Shown: positions 8,405-60,125 of the stretch, piece after piece
How positions within the stretch are numbered: position 1 is the stretch's first letter
How the letters are laid out: each line of letters begins with the position of its first letter
Assembly (NCBI RefSeq): GCF_000172155.1
Contig: NZ_ABIZ01000001.1
Span: 2,139,105 to 2,203,104, forward strand
DNA from: Verrucomicrobium spinosum DSM 4136 = JCM 18804
GTDB taxonomy: Bacteria; Verrucomicrobiota; Verrucomicrobiia; Verrucomicrobiales; Verrucomicrobiaceae
Reading direction: 5' to 3'
Length of the DNA: 64,000 nt
Made by a program: the position numbers and the translations under genes
Notes under the pieces: generated by a model
Told to the model about the DNA's origin: nothing
Databases searched by the model: none
Seen by the model: only the letters and a program-made list of their open reading frames with translations

Positions 8405-8467
8405 CCCAAAGTAGTCACAGGCTTCAGCCTGTTCAGGTGCGTGGCGGATGTGGTGCGTCGCCCGACC

Positions 8468-8578
8468 GCCGCAACTCCTTCGGAGTAGGAGTCATCGTTT
8501 CATGCACCCAACGTAGACTCGGTGGAAGCTCGTCAACGTTGGGCTTGTAGCCGCATCCTCTTCGAGGAACAATGACAA
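8468..8578. repeat. Solo fragment of the 630-bp repeat family (matches 21476-21580 and 22106-22211)
   Basis: ccgcaactccttcggagta…acccaacgtagactcg.tggaagctcgtcaacgttgggcttgtagcc.catcctcttcgaggaa is shared at about 90% identity with the tandem units. Confidence 0.6.
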
Positions 8579-11679: not shown

Positions 11680-11789
11680 GTCAGTGCGTCAGTGCGTCAG
11701 TGCGTCAGTGCGTCAGTGCGTCAGTGCGTCAGTGCGTCAGTGCGTCAGTGCGTCAGTGCGTCAGTGCGTCAGTGCGTCAGTGCGTCAGT
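11680..11789. repeat. Octamer microsatellite (GTCAGTGC)x13.6
   Basis: 13 perfect tandem units read directly from the sequence. Followed by gtttttgggttcgaggtaa, the same right flank as the locus at 29045. Confidence 0.95.
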
Positions 11790-11842
11790 TTTTGGGTTCG
11801 AGGTAAGTTGTAGACATGGAGGGGGGCGCTGGGTGGAGGTAT

Positions 11843-11920
11843 CCTGACCGCGTAAACGCGGAACTCCAACCCTGCTGGCGGGAGCGGAGAGGGTTGGAGT
11901 ACCGACTTTAGTCGGCTCAG
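11843..11920. repeat. Hairpin element family A, copy 1 (CGCGTAAACGCG + GGAACTCCAACCCT…AGGGTTGGAGT + CCGAC-TTTA-GTCGG-CTCAG)
   Basis: Three stacked palindromes. The same roughly 78-bp element recurs at 13403 and 29158. Confidence 0.75.
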
Positions 11921-11960: not shown

Positions 11961-13346
11961 TCAATTCCCGTACCCCGTGGAGATCGTGATTTCCAGGGTG
12001 GCGTTCTTAACATCGGTCAGTACTTCGTTGATCAAGTGGACGCTTCCCAAGTGGGTGTCAACTTTGGGGCCTTCTTCGGAGTTGGCGATGACATTGCCAG
12101 AGGGATCCAGCAGCCGGGCAGAGTCAAAGTTTGCACCAATGACATGGAATCCAGTACCCTTGATATCGCCGCCGAGGAAGATCATCACATTCCACTGCGT
12201 GAGCACGGGATGGTCGATGGGCGTGTTCCATTGGCCAGAGCTCCAGGGGACCTGGATGGTTTCGTGCTGAGGTTCAGCGACGAACTGAAAATCTGCGACC
12301 AAGCTAACAATGCTGCCGTCAGCAGCGAGGCCCCAATAGCAAGGTGACTCGCCGGAAGTATCGCCAGCATTTACACAGATTGCGTCTGGATTCTCCGGCG
12401 GTGTTGACCTCAAATGCATGGTCCGGTGCGTCTCAGTGATGTTCTTTCTTATCGGTTCGAGGTACGAGAGATTGAAAAGACGTTCTTTCTCTCTTTTCTC
12501 CAGTGACATCATGGCCCCGGCATCCACAAAGGCGAGATTCATATAGGCTATCTGCGTGTGGTGAGCGCCTCCGTTCACAGTTGGGGCTGGCACCCATGTG
12601 GCGACTTCGCGGTCGGGTTGGAAAACGACACGCGCGGCAGCTCCGTACCCATGGGCGATGGCGAGCTCTACGGGATAATCACCTGGCACAACTGAGCGGC
12701 TCAAGGGAAGGAAGTCATCATTGTCTCTCCCTAGGTCACAAACTCCAATGATACCGGAGGGCAGATGAAGAAGGCCAGCGGATGCCACCTTCAATGGGGT
12801 TTCGAGACCCATGACTCTGATCACCCGGTTGTCTTCAAAAAGCCGACCGCAATTTGGGCTGATGCCGGGCGGCAAATCTGGCAGGGGAGCATCGGGTTTC
12901 ACCATCGCCAGGACTTGGTTCTTGAGCGAGTCCGAGAACAATCGCTCGCCTTCCGGCGCATAGAAGGGTGATACCTTGGTGATCCGCCAGTCGTTGCCCA
13001 CGTGTTTCAACTCATACTCATAGAAGGCAGGAAAATGTTCGGCGTTCTCCGTTTCTATGACCGCGGAATCGATTTCTGCGCTGACATTGATGATGCATTC
13101 GTGCGCTGAATGGTGGGGAGGCTGGCTCCAGGAGAAGCCGAAGCCGAATTCATCTTTTGGGGCATCAGGGGTGAAGTGACGTTGGTGCACCTCTTTGCAG
13201 GCCTCGTTCCATTTCTGGAACGCCACCGGGTCGTAGTCAAAGGGTCCGCTGCCCATGGAGTCCCTGGCTGCAAGCCATTGGAGATACAAGTCGGAAATGT
13301 AGGCGCGGACGCGGGCCTCGGGGCTTTCGAAAATAGGGTCTGCCAT
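11961..13346 (-). CDS. Hypothetical cytoplasmic protein, possibly DUF4241-like middle domain
   Basis: 461 aa with no signal peptide. LLHLPSGIIGVCDLGRD resembles the LPSGxxxxxDP motif of DUF4241 (from memory, low certainty). Flanked by two copies of hairpin element A. Confidence 0.45.
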   Translation of the reverse strand: MADPIFESPEARVRAYISDLYLQWLAARDSMGSGPFDYDPVAFQKWNEACKEVHQRHFTPDAPKDEFGFGFSWSQPPHHSAHECIINVSAEIDSAVIETENAEHFPAFYEYELKHVGNDWRITKVSPFYAPEGERLFSDSLKNQVLAMVKPDAPLPDLPPGISPNCGRLFEDNRVIRVMGLETPLKVASAGLLHLPSGIIGVCDLGRDNDDFLPLSRSVVPGDYPVELAIAHGYGAAARVVFQPDREVATWVPAPTVNGGAHHTQIAYMNLAFVDAGAMMSLEKREKERLFNLSYLEPIRKNITETHRTMHLRSTPPENPDAICVNAGDTSGESPCYWGLAADGSIVSLVADFQFVAEPQHETIQVPWSSGQWNTPIDHPVLTQWNVMIFLGGDIKGTGFHVIGANFDSARLLDPSGNVIANSEEGPKVDTHLGSVHLINEVLTDVKNATLEITISTGYGN

Positions 13347-13402: not shown

Positions 13403-13480
13403 CCTGACCGCGTAAACGCGGAACTCCAACCCTACTGGCGGGAACGGAGAGGGTTGGAGTTCCGCCTTTAGGCGGCTCAG
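13403..13480. repeat. Hairpin element family A, copy 2
   Basis: cctgaccgcgtaaacgcggaactccaaccctactggcgggaacggagagggttggagttccgcctttaggcggctcag. About 92% identical to copy 1. Confidence 0.75.
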
Positions 13481-20990: not shown

Positions 20991-21020
20991 GTGAGGACTA
21001 GACGCCTGAACCAGTGCGCT

Positions 21021-22470
21021 GCGACACCATCGACACCCTTTTTGGAGGTTCACTGAGAAAGAGAGGAGGTGTTTTTTGGGGTAAGTTGTAAAAAGGGTGT
21101 CGATGGTGTCGCAGAGAGCGAGGTTTTGGGGGTGCTGACTGGATGGCCTGCTCCCTATTGCGCGAGCGCACAGGCTGCCTGCCAAGAAACCGACTCCGGT
21201 TCAGTTCGCAGTTTATCCCTGAAGGGGATATCTAGCACAGCCCAGTGGTTGGACGAGCCTTAAGCGAGTCAACCCTGGGTACCCTCCGCAGAGGATGATC
21301 AGGTGGGAAGGCTGACAGCATTCGCTTTCTTGCCACCGCTTTCAACGCCTCCACGTCAGACGGATGCGATGTCATGTGCTGTCTGACGTTCGCGGCAAGA
21401 TGCCGTGAACAGCACGCAGGGATGCGTGCGCTCCCCGAGCTTCCCATGCACAGGTCATGTTGAGGAACTGCCAGACCGCTACAACTCCTTCGGAGTAAAA
21501 ACCTCCAACACCCGTACCCAACGTAGACTCGCTGGAAGCTCGTCAACGTTGGGCTTGTAGCCCCATCCTCTTCGAGGAAGAACTTCGACTGAGGGCGTGG
21601 ACGGTTGGTGTCTTGGTGGCCACCCCGAGCGTGGGGCTTGGGCAGTTTTTCTTAGGTAGTCAACCACAGGGGTGTCTGTGAACAGGTGTTTTGCGACACC
21701 ATCGACACCCTTTTTACAACTTACCCCAAAAAATACCCCCTCTCTTTTTTTGTGAACCTCCAAAAAGGGTGTCGATGGTGTCGCAGAGAGCGAGGTTCTG
21801 GGTGTGCTGACTGGATGGCCTGCTTCCTATTGCGCGAGCGCACCGGCTGCCTGCCAAGAAACCGACTCCGGTTCAGTTCGCAGTTTATCCCCGAAGGGGA
21901 TATCTAGCACAGCCCAGTGGTTGGACGAGCCTTAAGCGAGTCAACCCTGGGTATCTCCGCAGAGGATGATCAGGTGGGACGGCCGACAGCATTCGCTTCT
22001 TGCCACCGCCATCAACGCCTCCACGTCAGACGGATGCGATGTCATGTGCTGCGTGCGCTCCCCGAGCTTCCCATGCACAGGTCATTTTGAGGAAATGCCA
22101 GACCGCTACAACTCCTTCGGAGTAAAAACCTCCAACGCCCGTGCCCAACGTAGACTCGCTGGAAGCTCGTCAACGGTGGGCTTGTGGCCCCATCCTCTTT
22201 GAGGAAGAACTTCGACTGAGCGCATGGACGGTTGGTGTCTTGGTGGCCACCCCGAGCGTGGGGCTTGGGCGGTTTCCCTTAGGTCGTCAACCACAGCGGC
22301 GTCTGTGAACAGGTATTCTGCGACACCATCGACACCCTTTTTACAACTTACACCAAAAAAACACCCCTCTCTTTTTCTGTGAACCTCCAAAAAGGGTGTC
22401 GATGGTGTCGCAGAGGGCGAGGTCCCGGGGGTGCTGACTGGATGGCCCGCTTCCTATCGCACCAACGCGC
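21021..22470. repeat. Tandem array of a roughly 630-bp unit (2.3 copies; periods 671 and 627 bp, about 94% identity), each unit starting with a 24-bp perfect inverted repeat enclosing a 46-bp loop
   Basis: IR arms TGCGACACCATCGACACCCTTTTT / AAAAAGGGTGTCGATGGTGTCGCA at 21021-21114, 21692-21785 and 22319-22412. The loop in copy 1 is the reverse complement of the loop in copies 2 and 3. Copy 1 has a 44-bp indel. Confidence 0.85.
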
Positions 22471-22540
22471 AGGCGGTCGGCGTGTTGTAGGCCGGGAGAC
22501 TCTGACCGGAACGGTGTGCCCGCGCCTCCTCTCAACCAAC

Positions 22541-29044: not shown

Positions 29045-29107
29045 GTCAGTGCGTCAGTGCGTCAGTGCGTCAGTGCGTCAGTGCGTCAGTGCGTCAGTGC
29101 GTCAGTT
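29045..29107. repeat. Octamer microsatellite (GTCAGTGC)x7.8, starting at the base after the TAG stop
   Basis: Direct reading. Same unit and same right flank (gtt.gggttcgaggtaa) as the locus at 11680. Confidence 0.95.
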
Positions 29108-29157
29108 GGGGTTCGAGGTAACCTTTATTGAATGGTAAGTCGTGGGCCGGAGTGGGG

Positions 29158-29307
29158 TGACCGGGTAAACGCGGAACTCCAACCCTCTCCGTTCCGCCAG
29201 CAGGGTTGGAGTTCCGTCTCGCATGCGGGACGGTCAGGGTACAAATACCCAGTGCGTTGCATTGCAGAAAGAACTCAGTTTTGGAGTATCGCCTTTAGGC
29301 GGCTCAG
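29158..29307. repeat. Hairpin element family A, copy 3 (inverted loop, 70-bp internal insertion)
   Basis: gaccgggtaaacgcggaactccaaccctctccgttccgccagcagggttggagttccg…cgcctttaggcggctcag. The loop is the reverse complement of the copy-2 loop. Confidence 0.65.
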
Positions 29308-29408
29308 GGAATTCTGAGTGGTGCGGGGGCATTGTGCTGAAATCGACGGTCGTCCCCATTTCCCACCCCGGGACTTGCCGCCCAGCCTGGCGCGTGTTAG
29401 GGACATTC

Positions 29409-30292: not shown

Positions 30293-30420
30293 GGTGCGTT
30301 GGTGCGTTGGTGCGTTGGTGCGTTGGTGCGTTGGTGCGTTGGTGCGTTGGTGCGTTGGTGCGTTGGTGCGTTGGTGCGTTGGTGCGTTGGTGCGTTGGTG
30401 CGTTGGTGCGTTGGTGCGTT
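30293..30420. repeat. Octamer microsatellite (GGTGCGTT)x16, starting 2 bp after the folD stop
   Basis: 16 perfect units read directly. Confidence 0.95.
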
Positions 30421-30439
30421 GATTTGCGTGTTATCTCAT

Positions 30440-30704
30440 GAACCCGGAGGGTTCGCCATGAGTAGCCATGGGTCGGCGGAGCGTAGCGAGGCCTACCCAT
30501 GGAAGTCTGGACGAAGGTTTCTACCGCGCAGGGGTAGGCCGATCGCGTTGCGAACCCCACACGAGATCCCGCCACACCACCCACTCAGACTTTGGTCGCC
30601 ATGGGCCTACCGCTCCGCGGTAGAAATCTCCATGTTGCTGTCCACGGGTAGCCATCGCTTCGTTCGGTCCACCCGTGGCTACTCATGGTGAACCCTCCGG
30701 GTTC
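30440..30704. repeat. MITE-like element with 34-bp terminal inverted repeats and nested internal palindromes (265 bp)
   Basis: Left end gaacccggagggttcgccatgagtagccatgggt, right end acccgtggctactcatggtgaaccctccgggttc (32/34 complementary). Internal tctaccgcg…cgcggtaga and ggcctacccatgg…ccatgggcctac. Confidence 0.55.
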
Positions 30705-32899: not shown

Positions 32900-33608
32900 A
32901 AAATGCAGGGTAATGAGGTGCGAGGGGAATCTTGGATGACGATATGAGTGGTAGTTTCCTGGTGTCCCGTTTGCAGACGAGAGAGCGAGGCGTGGGCCTT
33001 GGGCGCACGTATTCCCTGTGCCGTTGACCCGGAGGCGGACCTCCGGCGGAGACACCAGATGGAATTGGGGGCGTATTACCGCGAACCGTGTCGCGGTGGC
33101 ACGGGAAGATTCAGAACCTGAACCCTAGGGCGCGATGGGGCGCAGGAAGGGCTGGTGGGATGACGGACTGCCGTGCAGCCGTCGGTGAATGGCGTGGCGC
33201 CGGTGCGTTGAGCAGTTGGCGCTGGCTGGGTATTTCATGTTCTCGTTGACCTTGCCGAACGAGACGGTCACCCGCCACGTGCAGCATGTTGCTGTTGGGG
33301 AGACCATGAAGCCTGCGAAGCAGACCCCAGAGAGATCGTCCCTCCCAAAATTGCCTGCGAGGTTAGCTGACGGGCTGGACCTTGGAAGTGGTCCCTGCAA
33401 GCGGTTGCCCGCTTCGTTCGCCCCGTCCTGATTCTCTTGCGAAAACCAGGAGTTCGGTTCCCCCGCGCCACTACTGAGGAAGCAGTAATGACTTCGGCTG
33501 ACAGTGGGATGTTATTCCATGGACCTTTTTTGTCAAATGGAACCGGTGACACCCCGGGCGGACCCTGCGCAAGTCCTTGTGATTCATGCTTGAAGTTGCG
33601 GGCGTTCG

Positions 33609-37080: not shown

Positions 37081-38298
37081 TCAGCTTTCGGTTTCAGGAT
37101 CAGGGATGCGCGTGAAGGCGATTCGCATGGGGGTGTACTCCAAAGCCCCCAGAGCGCCGCCAAAGCACACGGCGTTCTGGCCGTAACGTTTGTTGATGGC
37201 ATCCATCAGTCCGCAGAGTTGCTGTTGTCGTTTGTCAAATTCCAGCAGGCTCGGCGTGACCTTGGTGGCAGGGGCAAGGCCGGAGAGGTTGACGCCGGTG
37301 GCCTTGGGCTCCAGGCCCGCTCGACGGGGACGTCGATCCCAGAGCACTTCGAAGGCTTCCAACAGGCGGAAGGTGTCCTGCGTATCACAGAAGGAGATGT
37401 CGGAGGACCAGGAGGGGCTGTTGGTGTACTTGATGAACAATTCAAGGCGGCAGGTGAAGTGGTCCATTTTCCTCAGGCGCATCGCCGCTTTCTGAAGAAG
37501 GCGGCAGCTCACGGCGTGAGTGCCAAGATCGTTCCGCAGCCGGGTGGGAAGCACGTGGGAATGGCCGATGACGCGGCGTTGGGTGGGCGGCGGTTCGGTC
37601 ACCTCGCCCCGAAGCCAGTGCCAGAGGTGGACGCCGCCAATACCACCCCAGACGTGATGGAGGGTTTCGCGAGTCGCGGAGGTGAGCTGCGCCACGGTGC
37701 GTATGCCGTGGGCGACCAGGCGGGTTTCCATTTTCTGGCCGATCCCGCAGAAGTCCCTGAGCTTCAACTGGTGCAGGCAGTGGGGGAGATCCGCCTGCTC
37801 GATCATGAAGAGGCCATCGGGCTTGCCCATATCCGAGGCGAGCTTGGCGAGGAAGCGATTCGGAGCGATGCCGATCGAGTAGGTGAGCCAGTCGCCCACC
37901 TGGCTGGTGAGCGTGGCCTTGAGCGAGCGTGCAAACGCCTCCGCCTGCGTGCGATTCGTCACGGATTTCGGCAGTAGGCACCAAGCTTCATCAATGGACA
38001 TGACCTCCGCCACCTGGATGCGAGACTCCAGAGCGGTGACGAAGCGCTGATGAAACTCCGTGTACAGACGCGGCCGGGATTCTACAAAGACGATCTCCGG
38101 GCACAACTGCCGGGCATCCCGCACGCGAGTGCCCGTCTTCACCCCAAACCGGCGGGCCTCCTTGCTCGCGGCAATGCAAGACGTGGACTCCGACTTCACC
38201 GGCACCACTCCCACCGGCCTTCCCCTCAGGCGTGGATCGAGCTGCTGCTCCACCGAGGCAAAGAAGCTATCCAGATCAAGAATAAGGTCCGGTCCCAT
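37081..38298 (-). CDS. Y-family translesion DNA polymerase (DinB/UmuC/ImuB-like) with C-terminal extension
   Basis: LILDLDSFFASVEQ…RGRPVGVV…IAASKEARRFGVKTG…SIDEAW is the Y-family palm. A LexA-box candidate lies 13 bp upstream. Confidence 0.75.
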   Translation of the reverse strand: MGPDLILDLDSFFASVEQQLDPRLRGRPVGVVPVKSESTSCIAASKEARRFGVKTGTRVRDARQLCPEIVFVESRPRLYTEFHQRFVTALESRIQVAEVMSIDEAWCLLPKSVTNRTQAEAFARSLKATLTSQVGDWLTYSIGIAPNRFLAKLASDMGKPDGLFMIEQADLPHCLHQLKLRDFCGIGQKMETRLVAHGIRTVAQLTSATRETLHHVWGGIGGVHLWHWLRGEVTEPPPTQRRVIGHSHVLPTRLRNDLGTHAVSCRLLQKAAMRLRKMDHFTCRLELFIKYTNSPSWSSDISFCDTQDTFRLLEAFEVLWDRRPRRAGLEPKATGVNLSGLAPATKVTPSLLEFDKRQQQLCGLMDAINKRYGQNAVCFGGALGALEYTPMRIAFTRIPDPETES

Positions 38299-38310
38299 TC
38301 TAAATAATAC

Positions 38311-38324
38311 TGTTCACAAGAACA
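38311..38324. promoter_or_regulatory. Candidate LexA operator, Verrucomicrobia type (TGTTC-N4-GAACA)
   Basis: TGTTCACAAGAACA is a perfect palindrome in the 73-bp divergent intergenic region between the Y-family polymerase and the RAYT-like gene. The motif class was reported for Verrucomicrobia SOS regulons (established knowledge, recalled). Confidence 0.55.
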
Positions 38325-38371: not shown

Positions 38372-39436
38372 ATGCGGCAATCTCGTTTGAAGGCTCCGAA
38401 GGAATGGCCGGTGGCTTACTACCACTGTGTGTCGCGGGTGGTGGATCGCCGATTCGTGTTTGAGAAGGAGGAGAAGCGCCGGTTCGTGGAGTTGATGCGG
38501 TTTTATGAGCGGTTCTGTCAGGTGCAGGTGGTCACGTTCTGCGTCATGTCGAACCACTTTCATCTCTTGCTGGAGGTGCCGCAGCGCCCGCAGGTAATGC
38601 CGTCGGAGGAGTGGCTGATCGGGCACATCAAGGGGTGCTTTGGTGAGGCGATGGCGGGGGTGGTCGCGGAGCAGATCCGTCAGTTTCGTCAGGTCGGGGC
38701 AGACGGAGCGGCGGCAGAGGTGATCCAGGGCTGGTTTTCCCGCATGTGGGATGTGAGCCAGTTCATGAAGACGCTGAAGCAGCGCTTCACGCAGTGGTTC
38801 AACAAGCACCATGAGCGCCGGGGGACGCTGTGGGAGGACCGGTACAAGAGCACGATGGTGGAGGGAGGGCCAGCAGCACTGGGCATCATGGCCGCTTACA
38901 TAGACCTGAATCCGGTGCGTGCTGGTTTGGTGAAGGACCCGAAGGACTACCCATGGAGTGGGTACGGTGCCGCAGTGGCAGGGGCGAGCCGAGCAGGGAG
39001 GGGGCTGGCGATCGTGGCGAACTGCCTGGCCCAGCGCGAATTGCGACCCGCAGAGGTTTTGGCTCTCTACAGGCAGATGCTTTATGTCGCGGGAAATGCA
39101 GGTGATGATCTCAGCATTCAGCTTCGCAGGGAAGCCGGGACACAGAAAGCGGGCCTCCACAACGACGAAGTGACCAAGGTGCACGCCCAAGGTGGAAAAC
39201 TCACGCTACAGGAGATGCTGCGCTGTCGGGTGCGCTACTTCACGGCAGGAGCGGCGGTGGGCAGTCGGGAGTTTGTGAATGCCGTGTTTGATTCTGCCCG
39301 CGGTCGTTTTGGGGCGACACGGATCGAAGGAGCCCGCCCCATGCGAGGAGCGGATTTCATGGGGCTGTGCAGCCTGCGTGATCTGCAAAAGCGCGTGATC
39401 ACCCATCCCTCAGACGCGGGTGGAGGCGTCAACTGA
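38372..39436 (+). CDS. IS200-like HuH Y1 transposase homologue (RAYT-like, transposase_17 family)
   Basis: CVMSNHFHLLLEVP is the HuH motif. LWEDRYKSTMVE is the Tyr region. YIDLNPVRAGLVKDPKDYPWSGY. 354 aa, single copy, no terminal IRs, so probably domesticated. Confidence 0.7.
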   Translation: MRQSRLKAPKEWPVAYYHCVSRVVDRRFVFEKEEKRRFVELMRFYERFCQVQVVTFCVMSNHFHLLLEVPQRPQVMPSEEWLIGHIKGCFGEAMAGVVAEQIRQFRQVGADGAAAEVIQGWFSRMWDVSQFMKTLKQRFTQWFNKHHERRGTLWEDRYKSTMVEGGPAALGIMAAYIDLNPVRAGLVKDPKDYPWSGYGAAVAGASRAGRGLAIVANCLAQRELRPAEVLALYRQMLYVAGNAGDDLSIQLRREAGTQKAGLHNDEVTKVHAQGGKLTLQEMLRCRVRYFTAGAAVGSREFVNAVFDSARGRFGATRIEGARPMRGADFMGLCSLRDLQKRVITHPSDAGGGVN

Positions 39437-45850: not shown

Positions 45851-45884
45851 TTGCCGGATCTTGTGAGAGTTGCGGAGCAGGGTT

Positions 45885-46550
45885 GTGGGGAAGAGCCGTC
45901 CCGGCTCTTGGGGGAGCTGGGTGGTGCGTGGACAAGAACCGAGACGGTTCTTCTACCATGGCGGTTGCCCGCGAGAGAGAAGGTAGAGGAGCCGTCCCGG
46001 CTCTTGGGTGCGCTGGATGGTGCGGGGACAAGAACCGGGACGGTTCTTCTACCCTGGCTGATGTCCGCGAGAGGGAATGTGGAAGAGCCGTCCCGGCTCT
46101 TGGGTGCGCTGGGTGACGCGTGGACAAGAACCGGGACGGTTCTTCTACCGTGGCGGTTGCCCGCGAGAGAGAAGGTAGAAGAGCCGTCCCGGCTCTTGGG
46201 TGCGCTGGATGGTGCGTGGACAAGAACCGGGACGGTTCTTCTACCGTGGCGGTTGCCTGCGAGAGAGAAGGTAGAGGAGCCGTCCCGGCTCTTGGGTGCG
46301 CTGGATGGTGCGGGGACAAGAACCGAGACGGTTCTTCTACCGTGGCGGTTGCCTGCGAGAGAGAATGTAGAAGAGCCGTCCCGGCTCTTGGGTGCGCTGG
46401 GTGACGCGTGGACAAGAACCGGGACGGTTCTTCTACCGTGGCGGTTGCCCGAGAGAGAGAATGTAGAAGAGCCGTCCCGGCTCTTGGGTGCGCTGGGTGA
46501 CGCGTGGACAAGAACCGGGACGGTTCTTCTACTATGGCGGATTTCCGCAC
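45885..46550. repeat. REPIN array: 7 tandem 96-bp units, each GTAG + AGAGCCG-TCC-CGGCTCT hairpin, 26-nt spacer and inverted AGAACCG-GGA-CGGTTCT hairpin
   Basis: Unit starts at 45890, 45986, 46082, 46178, 46274, 46370 and 46466 (exact 96-bp period). Fills the whole DUF1501-RAYT intergenic space. Confidence 0.9.
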
Positions 46551-46573
46551 GTAGCTTAGAGCTGTGAGGATAT

Positions 46574-47302
46574 TCAAGTGTTGGTTCCTTCGCTCAACTG
46601 CCTATTGCTCCCCACATATTCTGGATGTTCGCGAATGTAGTTCCGGATTCGCTCCAGACTGGCGCGGCTGCGCACGATGTGGTCGAAAGACTCGCGTTGC
46701 CATACCCTGCGATTCGGAAAATGAGATCGCAGCCCAGGCAGATGATCATCGATGATTTTGTTGAGTCGATGCGCTGAGTAGGACTTCCAAGAATGCAGAA
46801 TCTTGGAGAGATCATGTTCGGGATTTGGCGTCAAGATGGCGTGGACATGGTTTGACGCTACGACGTACTCGTCCAACTCGTAGCGAGCTCCAGCAAAATG
46901 ACGGATGGTTTGGGATGCGGAGTCCTTTGCGGGTTGATGGCTTAAAAGGCATGAACCACTGTTTGCATCCAACCAGCGCTGGAGACGCCTGGGAAATCGA
47001 TCATAGTACTCCTGACGGGTTAGCTTGTCATGAGGTTCGGGATGGCGCTTGAGCCAGTCTTCTCGATCCAGATGCCATTGATGTAGCTTGTCTTGAGGCA
47101 AAGCATCAGCCAGTCGAAAGGTGATGAAATAGGTCGTCGAGGCCTGCCTCCAATGTGGAAGATTCCCCGAAAGCACTTCTGTCGGAACGAGCTCTGAGTA
47201 GTAGACCCGGCTCTCATCTGGATTGGGAACGGGTTTATCCGGGGAATCCATGCGAAAACGAAGTGGCAGGTGTGCGGTAAAAGCCTGCCCATGTTGCGCC
47301 AT
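46574..47302 (-). CDS. REP-associated tyrosine transposase (RAYT; IS200-like HuH Y1 family)
   Basis: YYSELVPTEV… leads into the N-terminal TnpA_REP-like segment. HuH motif VVASNHVHAIL. WQRESFDHIVRS Tyr region. 242 aa, typical RAYT size. Flanked on both sides by REPIN arrays. Confidence 0.8.
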   Translation of the reverse strand: MAQHGQAFTAHLPLRFRMDSPDKPVPNPDESRVYYSELVPTEVLSGNLPHWRQASTTYFITFRLADALPQDKLHQWHLDREDWLKRHPEPHDKLTRQEYYDRFPRRLQRWLDANSGSCLLSHQPAKDSASQTIRHFAGARYELDEYVVASNHVHAILTPNPEHDLSKILHSWKSYSAHRLNKIIDDHLPGLRSHFPNRRVWQRESFDHIVRSRASLERIRNYIREHPEYVGSNRQLSEGTNT

Positions 47303-47319
47303 GGTTTGGTTGGGCGCAA

Positions 47320-47575
47320 CCGACTCTTGGGAGTGCTGAGCCGTGCGGGGGCAAGAACCGGGACGGTTCTTCTACCCTGGCTGATGTCCGCGAGGGGGAA
47401 AGTGGAAGAGCCGTCTCGGCTCTTGATGGCGCTGAGCCGTGCGGGGGCAAGAACCGGGACGGTTCTTCTACCCTGGCTGATGTCCGCGAGGGGGGAAAGT
47501 GGAAGAGCCGTCTCGGCTCTTGATGGCGCTGGGCCGTGCGGGGCCAAGAACCGGGACGGTTCTTCTACTGTCCGG
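47320..47575. repeat. REPIN array (2.5 units of the same 96/97-bp unit) on the other side of the RAYT gene
   Basis: caagaaccgggacggttcttctaccctggctgatgtccgcgagggggaaagtggaagagccgtctcggctcttgatggcgctg repeats at 47352, 47448 and 47545. Confidence 0.85.
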
Positions 47576-57125: not shown

Positions 57126-57146
57126 GTGGGGGGGGCGGGAGCGGGA

Positions 57147-57226
57147 GTGATGGAGTGATGGAGTGATGGAGTGATGGAGTGATGGAGTGATGGAGTGATG
57201 GAGTGATGGAGTGATGGAGTGATGGA
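57147..57226. repeat. Octamer microsatellite (GTGATGGA)x10, 22 bp after the GNAT stop
   Basis: 10 perfect units read directly. Confidence 0.95.
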
Positions 57227-57356
57227 GTGGGCTTCTGGGAAGCTTGGGGAGCGCACGCATCTTGCGTGCTGTTCTCGGCATCTTGCCGGGAACGTCAGTC
57301 AGGGCGTTGTCGCGAAATGCACGTCCATATGGGAATGTGTCGTCGCTGCTGGAAAT

Positions 57357-57385
57357 GGTAGAAGAGCCGTCCCGGCTCTTGGCTT
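57357..57385. repeat. Solo REP (same family as the RAYT-flanking arrays)
   Basis: gGTAGAAGAGCCGTCCCGGCTCTTGG is identical to the array consensus, including GTAG. Confidence 0.65.
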
Positions 57386-59421: not shown

Positions 59422-59429
59422 GGGGGAAG

Positions 59430-59503
59430 GAATTAGAAATTAGAAATTAGAAATTAGGAATGATGAATTAGGAATGATGAATTAGGAATGATGAATTAGG
59501 AAT
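59430..59503. repeat. Compound microsatellite (GAAATTA)x4 + (GAATGATGAATTAG)x3, 9 bp after the SDR stop
   Basis: Direct reading. Confidence 0.9.
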
Positions 59504-59508
59504 GGGGG

Positions 59509-60125
59509 CACGAGCTTCAAGCTCCCTCCTGGTGCGGCCTTGCTCGTGACTCGTGGCTGCGTTTGTCAAAACGCGGTCAGAGGCGTTGCTTGCACCTCAA
59601 GGCAGCAAGCCATCCTTTACGGTCGCCTGCACCCACGCATTCTTACGAATGCGTCCACGAGCTTCAAGCTCCCTCCTGGTGCGGCCCTGTTCGTGACTCG
59701 TGGCTGCGTTTGTTAAAACGCGGTCAGCGGCGTTTCTTGGACCTTAGGGAAGCAAGCCATCCGTTACCGTCGCCCGCACCCACGCATTCTTACGAATGCA
59801 TCCACGAGCATCGAGTTGCCTCGTGGTGCGGCCCTGTTCGTGACTCGTGGCTGCGTTTGTTAAAACGCGGTCAGCGGCGTTTCTTGGACCTTAGGGAAGC
59901 AAGCCATCCGTTACCGTCGCCCGCACCCACGCATTCTTACGAATGCATCCACGAGCATCGAGTTGCCTCGTGGTGCGGCCCTGTTCGTGACTCGTGGCTG
60001 CGTTTGTCAAAACGCGGTCAGAGGCGTCGCTTGCACCTCAAGGCAGCAAGCCATCCCGCATGGTCGCCCGCACCTACGCATTCTTACGAATGCGTCCACG
60101 AGCTTCGAGTTCGCCCTCGTGATCG
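59509..60125. repeat. Tandem array of a 147-bp hairpin-rich unit, 4.2 copies, in an A-B-B-A variant order
   Basis: Unit starts (cacgagc…) at 59509, 59656, 59803, 59950 and 60097. Each unit carries CACGAGC…GCTCGTG, GCGTTTG-TYAA-AACGC and CGCATTC-TTAC-GAATGCG palindromes. Units 2 and 3 are identical. Confidence 0.9.

Follow-up and report, generated by a model that had tools for sequence, protein, structure and literature searches.

A triple-hairpin intergenic repeat family with adjoining octamer arrays in the Verrucomicrobium spinosum clade and its possible likeness to REP elements

The DNA analysed here, referred to as the window, is a stretch of 64,000 nucleotides of Verrucomicrobium spinosum DSM 4136 (contig NZ_ABIZ01000001.1). 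It contains two copies of a composite intergenic element, in which an octamer microsatellite is followed by a conserved 15-mer, a variable linker and a triple-hairpin module of 80 nt, as well as one module that stands alone (Table 1). At locus 1 the array precedes the GTG start codon (11630) of a minus-strand gene for a 179-residue protein by about 50 nt. The solo module sits between the 3′ end of an oxidoreductase gene (13519) and the start of a DUF4241 gene (13346), and at locus 2 the array begins 1 nt past the stop codon of a DUF374 acyltransferase gene. In both arrays the last unit is cut short to GTCAGT, and T(T)TTGGGTTCGAGGTAA / TGGGGTTCGAGGTAA comes next. The order of parts and the coordinates given in the earlier note, which described the composite from the letters of the window, are confirmed for 11680-11920, 29045-29240 and the module alone at 13403-13480. 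The note had also extended the locus-2 composite to 29307. The order stands, but the sequence CGCCTTTAGGCGGCTCAG (29290-29307) is not the third hairpin of that module; it belongs to a solo half-unit about 40 nt downstream, and the module has its own third hairpin, CCGTCTCGCATGCGGGACGG. The window thus holds three inverted doublets and one singlet.

Table 1. Coordinates of the repeat features in the window
Feature	Position	Strand	Remarks
Octamer microsatellite, locus 1, (GTCAGTGC) x13.75	11680-11789	+	100% matches
Conserved spacer motif TTTTGGGTTCGAGGTAA, locus-1 variant of TGGGGTTCGAGGTAA	11790-11806	+	
Variable linker, locus 1	11807-11842	+	about 36 nt; unlike between paralogous loci; about 70% identity between orthologs
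Triple-hairpin module, locus 1	11843-11920	+	fold z -5.4; covariance model 98.5 bits
Locus 1, CCTGA	11843-11847		
Locus 1, mini-hairpin CCGCG-TAAA-CGCGG	11848-11861		
Locus 1, arm AACTCCAACCCT	11862-11873		
Locus 1, loop	11874-11889		16 nt
Locus 1, arm AGGGTTGGAGTA	11890-11901		
Locus 1, mini-hairpin CCGAC-TTTA-GTCGG	11902-11915		
Locus 1, CTCAG	11916-11920		
Solo triple-hairpin module	13403-13480	+	no array or 15-mer; fold z -8.6; covariance model 99.1 bits; layout as locus 1
Octamer microsatellite, locus 2, (GTCAGTGC) x7.75	29045-29106	+	100% matches
Conserved spacer motif TGGGGTTCGAGGTAA, locus 2	29107-29121	+	
Variable linker, locus 2	29122-29157	+	
Triple-hairpin module, locus 2	29158-29238	listed +	fold z -3.7; covariance model 79.6 bits on minus strand vs 47.5 on plus strand
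Locus 2, mini-hairpin	29161-29174		
Locus 2, arm	29175-29186		
Locus 2, loop	29187-29201		
Locus 2, arm	29202-29213		
Locus 2, third hairpin CCGTCTCGCATGCGGGACGG	29214-29233		long variant
Linker of second mosaic type, with octamer-like seed ACCCAGTGCGTTGC	29239-29273	-	conserved with L005, L011
Solo half-unit (REP-like singlet) CTGAGCCGCCTAAAGGCGATACTCCAAAACTGAG	29274-29307	-	weak covariance-model match 29259-29308
(GGTGCGTT)16 array	30293-30421		2 nt after folD stop codon
Long palindrome	30440-30704		265 nt; 108-nt arms, 79% complementary; 3′ of (GGTGCGTT)16 array
Canonical GTAG-REP/Y1 pair (REPtron)	45881-47570		gene 46574-47302, minus strand
(GGAGTGAT) x10.8 array	57144-57229		19 nt after GNAT acetyltransferase stop codon; unit unrelated to the other arrays

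The module is built from a basic unit of about 30 nt, which comprises CTGA(G), a 5-bp mini-hairpin of the form CCGNN-TRAA-N′N′CGG and a tail, (A/T)ACTCCAACCCT; the unit of the family reads CTGACCGCGTAAACGCGGAACTCCAACCCT. Two such units, inverted about an asymmetric loop of 15-16 nt (GCTGGNGGNNCGGAG), make up the module. In the predicted structure the unit tails pair as a long central stem, while each mini-hairpin folds separately. The two 26-nt arms are 81-92% complementary and 16 nt apart. Among the short units, 29 of 34 have perfect 5-bp stems with the constant TRAA loop, and six compensated variants (CG, CA, AC, CT, CC and TC) are found at stem positions 4-5. Five units carry a longer 8-bp variant, CCGTCCCG-CATG-CGGGACGG. 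Allowing up to two mismatches, the window has six occurrences of the 14-nt arm GGAACTCCAACCCT, in three inverted pairs, against 0.54 expected from shuffled sequence (0 of 100 shuffles reach 6). RNA structure prediction, which the earlier note had named as a check, folds the single strands of all three modules far better than their shuffles (z values in Table 1), and the predicted locus-1 fold is a four-way junction of a closing stem and three hairpins.

Covariation was measured on an alignment of 16 modules. Double-sided changes occupy 18 alignment cells, a number that none of 500 shuffles attains (5.5 ± 2.0), and 95% of the cells are paired, compared with 28-46% when the partners are slid. 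All four Watson-Crick pair types are present among the covarying mini-hairpin stems; GC, AU, CG and UA occur at column pairs 17-23 and 72-83, and CG, AU and UA at 71-84. Every copy of the module is intergenic, lying between called genes. An open reading frame of 29 codons can be read through two of the window copies, but coding potential was rejected, since no reading frame is conserved; the loop varies between 15 and 16 nt in length and the mini-hairpins change by compensatory pairs.

The module is a dispersed repeat family restricted to the narrow V. spinosum clade and not a local duplication, because exact copies of a 24-nt core lie at 11 loci on different contigs and a covariance model detects 21 copies. 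The search for exact cores covered one genome per species, and the 11 loci all belong to Verrucomicrobium: six in the draft genome of BvORR034, four in that of BvORR106 and one in a metagenome-assembled genome. None came from V. spinosum, whose genome was apparently absent from the searched set or masked in it. A local duplication alone, the finding which the earlier note held would overturn its proposal, is thereby refuted. A mismatch-tolerant search adds neighbouring copies, for example three in 8 kb of contig L010. With the covariance model, derived from 16 copies, 21 full modules are detected in 246 kb of scanned DNA, and none in the roughly 65 kb that comes from relatives at about 80-85% amino acid identity (L026-L030 and L033-L035), with which a mismatch-tolerant scan for the arms agrees. 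Solo units, which resemble REP singlets, occur at 29274-29307 of the window and on L005, L009, L011 and L032.

A metagenome scan yielded one true member, on contig L018. The other nine matches (seven distinct) were rejected as members; they represent an unrelated widespread hairpin, ACTCCAACCCTCTCC...GGAGAGGGTTGGAGT, in taxa of 46-70% GC. This perfect hairpin, ACTCCAACCCTCTCC(C)-loop-(G)GGAGAGGGTTGGAGT, is present on contigs L016, L017, L019, L021, L023, L024 and L025. It shares an 11-nt arm core with the Verrucomicrobium module, which is partly an ascertainment effect of the search pattern, and its common CTCTCC extension suggests a widespread hairpin motif. Viral contigs contained no match to the module or to the junction of array and 15-mer, and a phage origin was rejected.

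The 15-mer TGGGGTTCGAGGTAA is seen solely between an array and a module. This arrangement occurs at four independent loci, namely window locus 1 and its BvORR106 ortholog, window locus 2, L001 and its ortholog L006, and L002 and its ortholog L004; the order of array, 15-mer, linker and module is constant at all four. In this array-bearing sub-type the 15-mer is preceded by a seed, GGTGCGTCAGT, and separated from the module by 24-36 nt of linker whose sequence is not conserved. Three identities of the 15-mer were considered and rejected: a relic of a tRNA T-arm (the window has no tRNAs), a promoter (no promoter consensus) and a Shine-Dalgarno and start codon pair (the downstream start codon is not conserved).

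Arrays were called with Tandem Repeats Finder. The window has four long octamer arrays, three of which share the unit family RGTGCGTY, while the fourth is (GGAGTGAT)10.8. Similar octamer arrays are present in related loci, and RGTGCGTY arrays (units GTCAGTGC, GTCGGTGC and GGTGCGTT) occur at a frequency of about one per 15-20 kb. In six of seven independent cases the array starts 1-19 nt past a stop codon with the G/T-rich strand as the sense strand; the closeness to stop codons may be due to very short ancestral spacers. Only the G/T-rich strand folds into a hairpin as single-stranded DNA (-23.4 kcal/mol, z -4.5), compared with z +3.9 for its complement. The GC skew is positive over the entire window, and the G-rich strand is the plus strand in all four arrays. 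Replication as the determinant of loop and array orientation was rejected, since L002 and L004 each hold two opposed arrays or remnants within 300 bp, each of them sense to its own gene.

Perfect head-to-tail units whose number differs between related genomes characterize the arrays as microsatellites, or variable-number tandem repeats. Unit number, whose polymorphism between strains had been suggested as a check, differs between orthologs, with 1.4 units in L002 and 14 in L004, and 7.75 at locus 2 but 0 in a relative at 95% amino acid identity. The BvORR106 ortholog of locus 1 has 11 units, every one of them GTCGGTGC, instead of the 13.75 GTCAGTGC units in the window. The (GGTGCGTT)16 array after folD and the long palindrome next to it both recur in BvORR034 at the orthologous position, the start of L037, where the array consists of at least 18 units of GTCGGTGC. 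The position of the locus-1 array is kept, about 55 nt upstream of the 179-residue gene, in relatives at 97, 89 and 75% amino acid identity, in which the contigs end inside the array. The sequence TTTTTGGGT flanks the first array on either side in both V. spinosum and the BvORR106 ortholog, and the expansion in place that had been read from this context is borne out by the differing array lengths, which show both growth and contraction. Because both the length and the unit sequence differ between orthologs, the arrays appear to change length quickly with homogenisation, as expected of replication slippage. Short-read assemblies are broken by the arrays: of four assemblies with the DUF374 gene, three stop within the locus-2 array, as do three Logan contigs of relatives within the locus-1 array.

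Relative to BvORR106, third codon positions of the neighboring gene are 74% identical and the linker about 70%, whereas identity reaches 94-98% in the module core and 100% in the 23-nt stretch with the 15-mer, TTTTTGGGTTCGAGGTAAGTTGT (11789-11811). The BvORR106 ortholog of the solo module (L007 115-194) shows one difference from CTGACC to GTTCC, and its identity over all 80 nt is about 95%. Both the module and the 15-mer thus change at a lower rate than synonymous sites do, and are held under constraint by selection or by gene conversion among copies.

At locus 2 the spacer between the DUF374 gene and folD is 364 nt in the window, and 40-66 nt, with neither array nor module, in relatives at 85% identity. 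The relative at 95% amino acid identity harbors a rearranged locus-2 remnant, with a motif like the 15-mer, a mini-hairpin that has decayed, one solo unit and no array. A second V. spinosum assembly, GCA_001313125.1, which is taken as the same strain and so says nothing on polymorphism between strains, is identical at locus 2 base for base. Given the compact spacer of the relatives at about 85% identity, the 266-nt composite is most simply read as an insertion in the V. spinosum clade, with a loss in the relatives as the less simple alternative.

The locus-2 loop, CTCCGTTCCGCCAGC, is the reverse complement of the loop type in locus 1 and the solo copy. Relative to the commonest left flank, CCTGACCGCRTAAAYGCGG, the loop has the same orientation in 14 of 16 copies and is reversed at window 29158 and in L011. 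A second mosaic type, in which a linker containing ACGCACTGGGT joins a solo unit to a doublet, is common to locus 2 on its minus strand, L005 and L011, and when locus 2 is read in this way its loop has the usual orientation. The flipped loop described in the earlier note therefore holds relative to the array, but not when the module is taken as part of the second mosaic type. The reversal may have come about by in-situ inversion of the segment between the 14-bp arms or by mosaic assembly in the opposite orientation. Small inversions associated with hairpins and template switching at quasi-palindromes are known from chloroplast non-coding DNA and from E. coli mutagenesis. The Verrucomicrobium loop is like these in that it occurs in both orientations (14 and 2 of 16) between perfect inverted arms of 14-15 bp; it is unlike them in that in-situ inversion is only one reading, the other being mosaic assembly of locus 2 on the opposite strand.

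We consider these copies to be a mosaic, non-coding intergenic repeat family of the V. spinosum clade only, similar to repetitive extragenic palindromic (REP) sequences and bacterial interspersed mosaic elements (BIMEs), with an attached slippage-prone microsatellite, and put the probability of this reading at roughly 55%. REPs, BIMEs and REP doublets forming hairpins (REPINs) have been described in Proteobacteria (Nunvar 2010, PMC2817692; Bertels & Rainey 2011, PMC3116915; Di Nocera 2013, PMC3733652). The Verrucomicrobium family shares with REPs and BIMEs the short (about 30 nt), GC-rich palindromic units and the strictly extragenic location. Its 21 doublets, each with two inverted units and a short spacer that form one long hairpin, correspond to REPINs. 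Solo units, mosaic clusters with other motifs, compensatory changes that preserve the small stems and vertical retention of copies at orthologous sites are further likenesses.

Under this reading, the family could have reached its present form in the following way. The seed GGTGCGTCAGT would expand and collapse by replication slippage to give perfect octamer arrays, which would repeatedly be homogenised to one unit variant. Copies would be inserted into short intergenic spacers, mostly right after a stop codon, and the spread would most likely proceed through single-stranded hairpin DNA handled in trans by an enzyme of the HUH/Y1 type, by analogy with REPINs. Once in place, the module would putatively act as a DNA or RNA hairpin at transcript ends or as a protein-binding site.

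Several observations weigh against such a family. The known REP super-families are defined by a conserved tetranucleotide, GTAG or CGTC, that heads the palindrome on one side (PMC2817692, PMC3733652), whereas the module units begin with CTGACC, CTGAGCC or CTTCACC and have no GTAG or CGTC beside the hairpin. REPs usually exceed 100 copies per genome (PMC2817692); the module has apparently tens, not hundreds, of copies, and exact cores number only six and four in the draft genomes of BvORR034 and BvORR106, respectively. REPs also flank, in inverted orientation, the gene of a cognate Y1 transposase, the REP-associated tyrosine transposase (RAYT) (PMC2817692). In contrast, no Y1 gene flanked by the module was found among the window genes, the syntenic orthologs and the module-bearing loci examined, and no Y1 homolog was found in the module-bearing loci. 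The sole clear Y1/REP pair in the window, at 45881-47570, has GTAG-headed repeats unrelated in sequence to the triple-hairpin family. The added conserved 15-mer and octamer microsatellite of one sub-type also differ from REPs, and the function of the 15-mer is left without explanation. The central stem is invariant and does not covary, which says little, because the copies were collected by exact match to that stem. The covarying pairs are all Watson-Crick, with no G-U intermediates, and the covariation could come from the shuffling of a few pre-existing hairpin variants instead of selection on each copy. Neither a target-site duplication nor a clean junction of an empty site was recovered, and mobility as a discrete unit is therefore only inferred.

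Two Y1 genes are present in the window. The gene at 38372-39436 (plus strand, 354 residues) has the HUH (HFH) and LWEDRYKS motifs, and the earlier note took it as a possible RAYT partner of the module. This is not supported: the gene scores 67, below the NCBIfam cut-off of 80 for REP-associated transposases, and has neither a module within 9 kb nor a flanking inverted repeat. The synteny of dinB, the Y1 gene and prfA is conserved in BvORR034 and BvORR106, where modules and repeats are likewise lacking around the gene. Between dinB (37081-38298, minus strand) and this Y1 gene, a divergent region of 73 nt includes a palindrome, TGTTCACAAGAACA (38311-38324), which resembles a LexA (SOS) box; by this resemblance dinB and the Y1 gene may be damage-inducible.

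The second Y1 gene, which the earlier note did not name, lies at 46574-47302 (minus strand); it encodes a Y1_Tnp protein of 242 residues and has tandem 96/97-nt units on both sides, in 6.8 and 2.4 copies. Each unit contains two inverted GTAG-headed palindromes, GTAG-AAGAGCCG-TCC-CGGCTCTT ... AAGAACCG-GGA-CGGTTCTT-CTAC. The palindromes around the gene read GTAGAAGAGCCGTCCCGGCTCTT ... AAGAACCGGGACGGTTCTTCTAC, and a further singlet lies at 57352-57382. The gene and its repeats fit the published definition of a RAYT flanked by REPs (PMC2817692). Because the clear Y1/REP pair uses another family and no Y1 gene is flanked by the module, the triple-hairpin family is an orphan by the flanking criterion. 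As a separate observation, module half-units are joined to a different GTAG-headed palindrome, GTAGTCCGGCTGTCCCCAGCCGG, at L003 2511-2587 and at L008 around 287-340, and the orphan family and GTAG REPs thus co-occur in the same mosaic clusters.

The module could instead be a selected cis-acting mRNA structure, such as a 3′-end stabiliser, a terminator independent of a U-tract or a protein-binding element of an untranslated region, spread by rare duplication with no dedicated enzyme. Slower evolution than at synonymous sites between species, the position of modules past the ends of genes, in many cases where two genes converge or run in tandem, and the strong predicted structure with covariation all accord with such a role. 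The sense strand reads the loop as CTCCG..CCAGC at seven of ten loci with unambiguous gene orientation, both flipped copies included, but a 7:3 bias is not significant, and the proposal that loop orientation follows transcription was rejected. One stem change in BvORR106 is compatible with a G-U pair on the sense strand only, while the covarying pairs offer no G-U intermediates. No module has a U-tract or terminator consensus, the hairpins being followed by CTCAG, TCAGG or TGAAG; no Rfam 15 family is found at the modules, where E values of up to 5 give only chance matches of the miRNA type; and the copy at L010 5104-5182 lies between divergent gene starts. Function alone would not explain the solo half-units and the mosaic shuffling of hairpin variants, and we regard an RNA element as an unlikely account. 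A small-RNA gene, with the 15-mer in a promoter or processing signal and the triple hairpin as the RNA body, would fit the strong predicted fold and the fairly fixed 24-36 nt between conserved 15-mer and conserved structure across an unconstrained linker. It is far less probable: most modules lack the 15-mer, a sigma-70-like promoter or terminator consensus is missing, loop sequence and length differ among copies, and the structure is near-symmetric on both strands, with no strand-specific G-U signal.

Mobility by other means fares no better. The earlier note spoke of a MITE/REP-like family. The REP-like part is upheld by the architecture of palindromic units, inverted doublets, solos and intergenic location, whereas a miniature inverted-repeat transposable element (MITE), that is, a deletion derivative of an insertion sequence moved through terminal inverted repeats (CTGACCGCGTAAACGCGG...-type ends), is improbable. 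The composite is small, non-coding, intergenic and multi-copy, its insertion at locus 2 is missing in relatives, and TTTTTGGGT is repeated to either side of the first array. However, its two ends, one an array and one a hairpin, form no terminal inverted repeats, and TTTTTGGGT brackets the array alone and was not seen at the remaining three loci of the composite, which leaves no consistent target duplication. Apart from the two Y1 genes, neither of which is linked to the module, no transposase is present among the called genes of the window. The gene at 11961-13346 is bracketed by two modules, as previously noted; they have the same orientation, and the arrangement is the same in V. spinosum and BvORR106. 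Such bracketing would be expected if modules were attC-like recombination sites around mobile gene cassettes, and GC at third codon positions (GC3) of this DUF4241 gene is 0.64, compared with 0.78-0.86 for its neighbors. Other copies do not bracket single genes, the module ends are CTGACC/GGTCAG and not the RYYYAAC/GTTRRRY core sites, no integrase, tyrosine recombinase or recombinase domain was found among the window genes scanned, and the arrangement is stable across species; of all the explanations considered, this one has the least to recommend it. The BvORR106 ortholog of the DUF4241 gene also has a GC3 of 0.64, and the gene may have been acquired horizontally.

The arrays may also be regarded apart from the module. 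A literature search found no paper on Verrucomicrobium repeats or octanucleotide arrays. The short tandemly repeated repetitive (STRR) heptamer arrays of cyanobacteria were reportedly first described by Mazel et al. in 1990. They are the closest described analogue of the octamer arrays (PMC2670836). The STRR arrays of heterocystous cyanobacteria and the RGTGCGTY arrays are both dispersed intergenic arrays of one short-unit family, able to form hairpins, present at many loci within one lineage and of no known function (PMC2670836). STRR units are 7 nt and those of Verrucomicrobium 8 nt, and the phylum is different. Unlike STRR arrays, some Verrucomicrobium arrays are physically joined to the conserved 15-mer and hairpin module, and the unit variant has been replaced across an entire array between orthologs. 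The recurrence of RGTGCGTY arrays, their position and sense strand relative to stop codons, their persistence down to 75% identity and the replacement of units over whole arrays would speak for a selected functional intergenic class, with or without the 15-mer, instead of passive slippage products. We hold this to be doubtful. If it were so, the arrays could serve as a length-variable platform for protein or RNA binding that tunes expression of adjacent genes. Another possibility is that they form the microsatellite tail of a new kind of bacterial mobile element which has the hairpin module at its other end.

Other features of the window lie outside these elements. A c-di-AMP riboswitch (Rfam RF00379, 60.8 bits; 33337-33509, minus strand) is the sole Rfam match in the window at the gathering threshold. 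Three tandem copies of a 627-672-nt unit occupy 21007-22481, with no convincing open reading frame and no Rfam match, and a partial copy is found 13 kb away at 8460-8572 (repeat families D5, D7-D9, D13, D17 and D18); this repeat may be a non-coding RNA or a decayed element. The non-coding stretch 59428-60121 contains an AT-rich 7/14-nt array (59428-59504) followed by a 147-nt tandem repeat of 4.2 copies (59509-60121).

The octamer arrays would be practical markers for strain typing, and their persistence just upstream or downstream of genes makes them candidates for length-dependent regulation of the neighboring genes. If the module family is only selfish or neutral DNA, its value is mainly for annotation. 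Our picture of REP and REPIN biology derives almost wholly from Proteobacteria, where the GTAG head and the flanking RAYT gene define the system. Here, a bacterium of the Planctomycetes-Verrucomicrobia-Chlamydiae (PVC) group carries a canonical GTAG-REP/Y1 pair beside a second, untagged, orphan hairpin family. An orphan family with structural covariation and conservation across species raises the question by what means REP-like repeats without a cognate transposase are mobilised or maintained.

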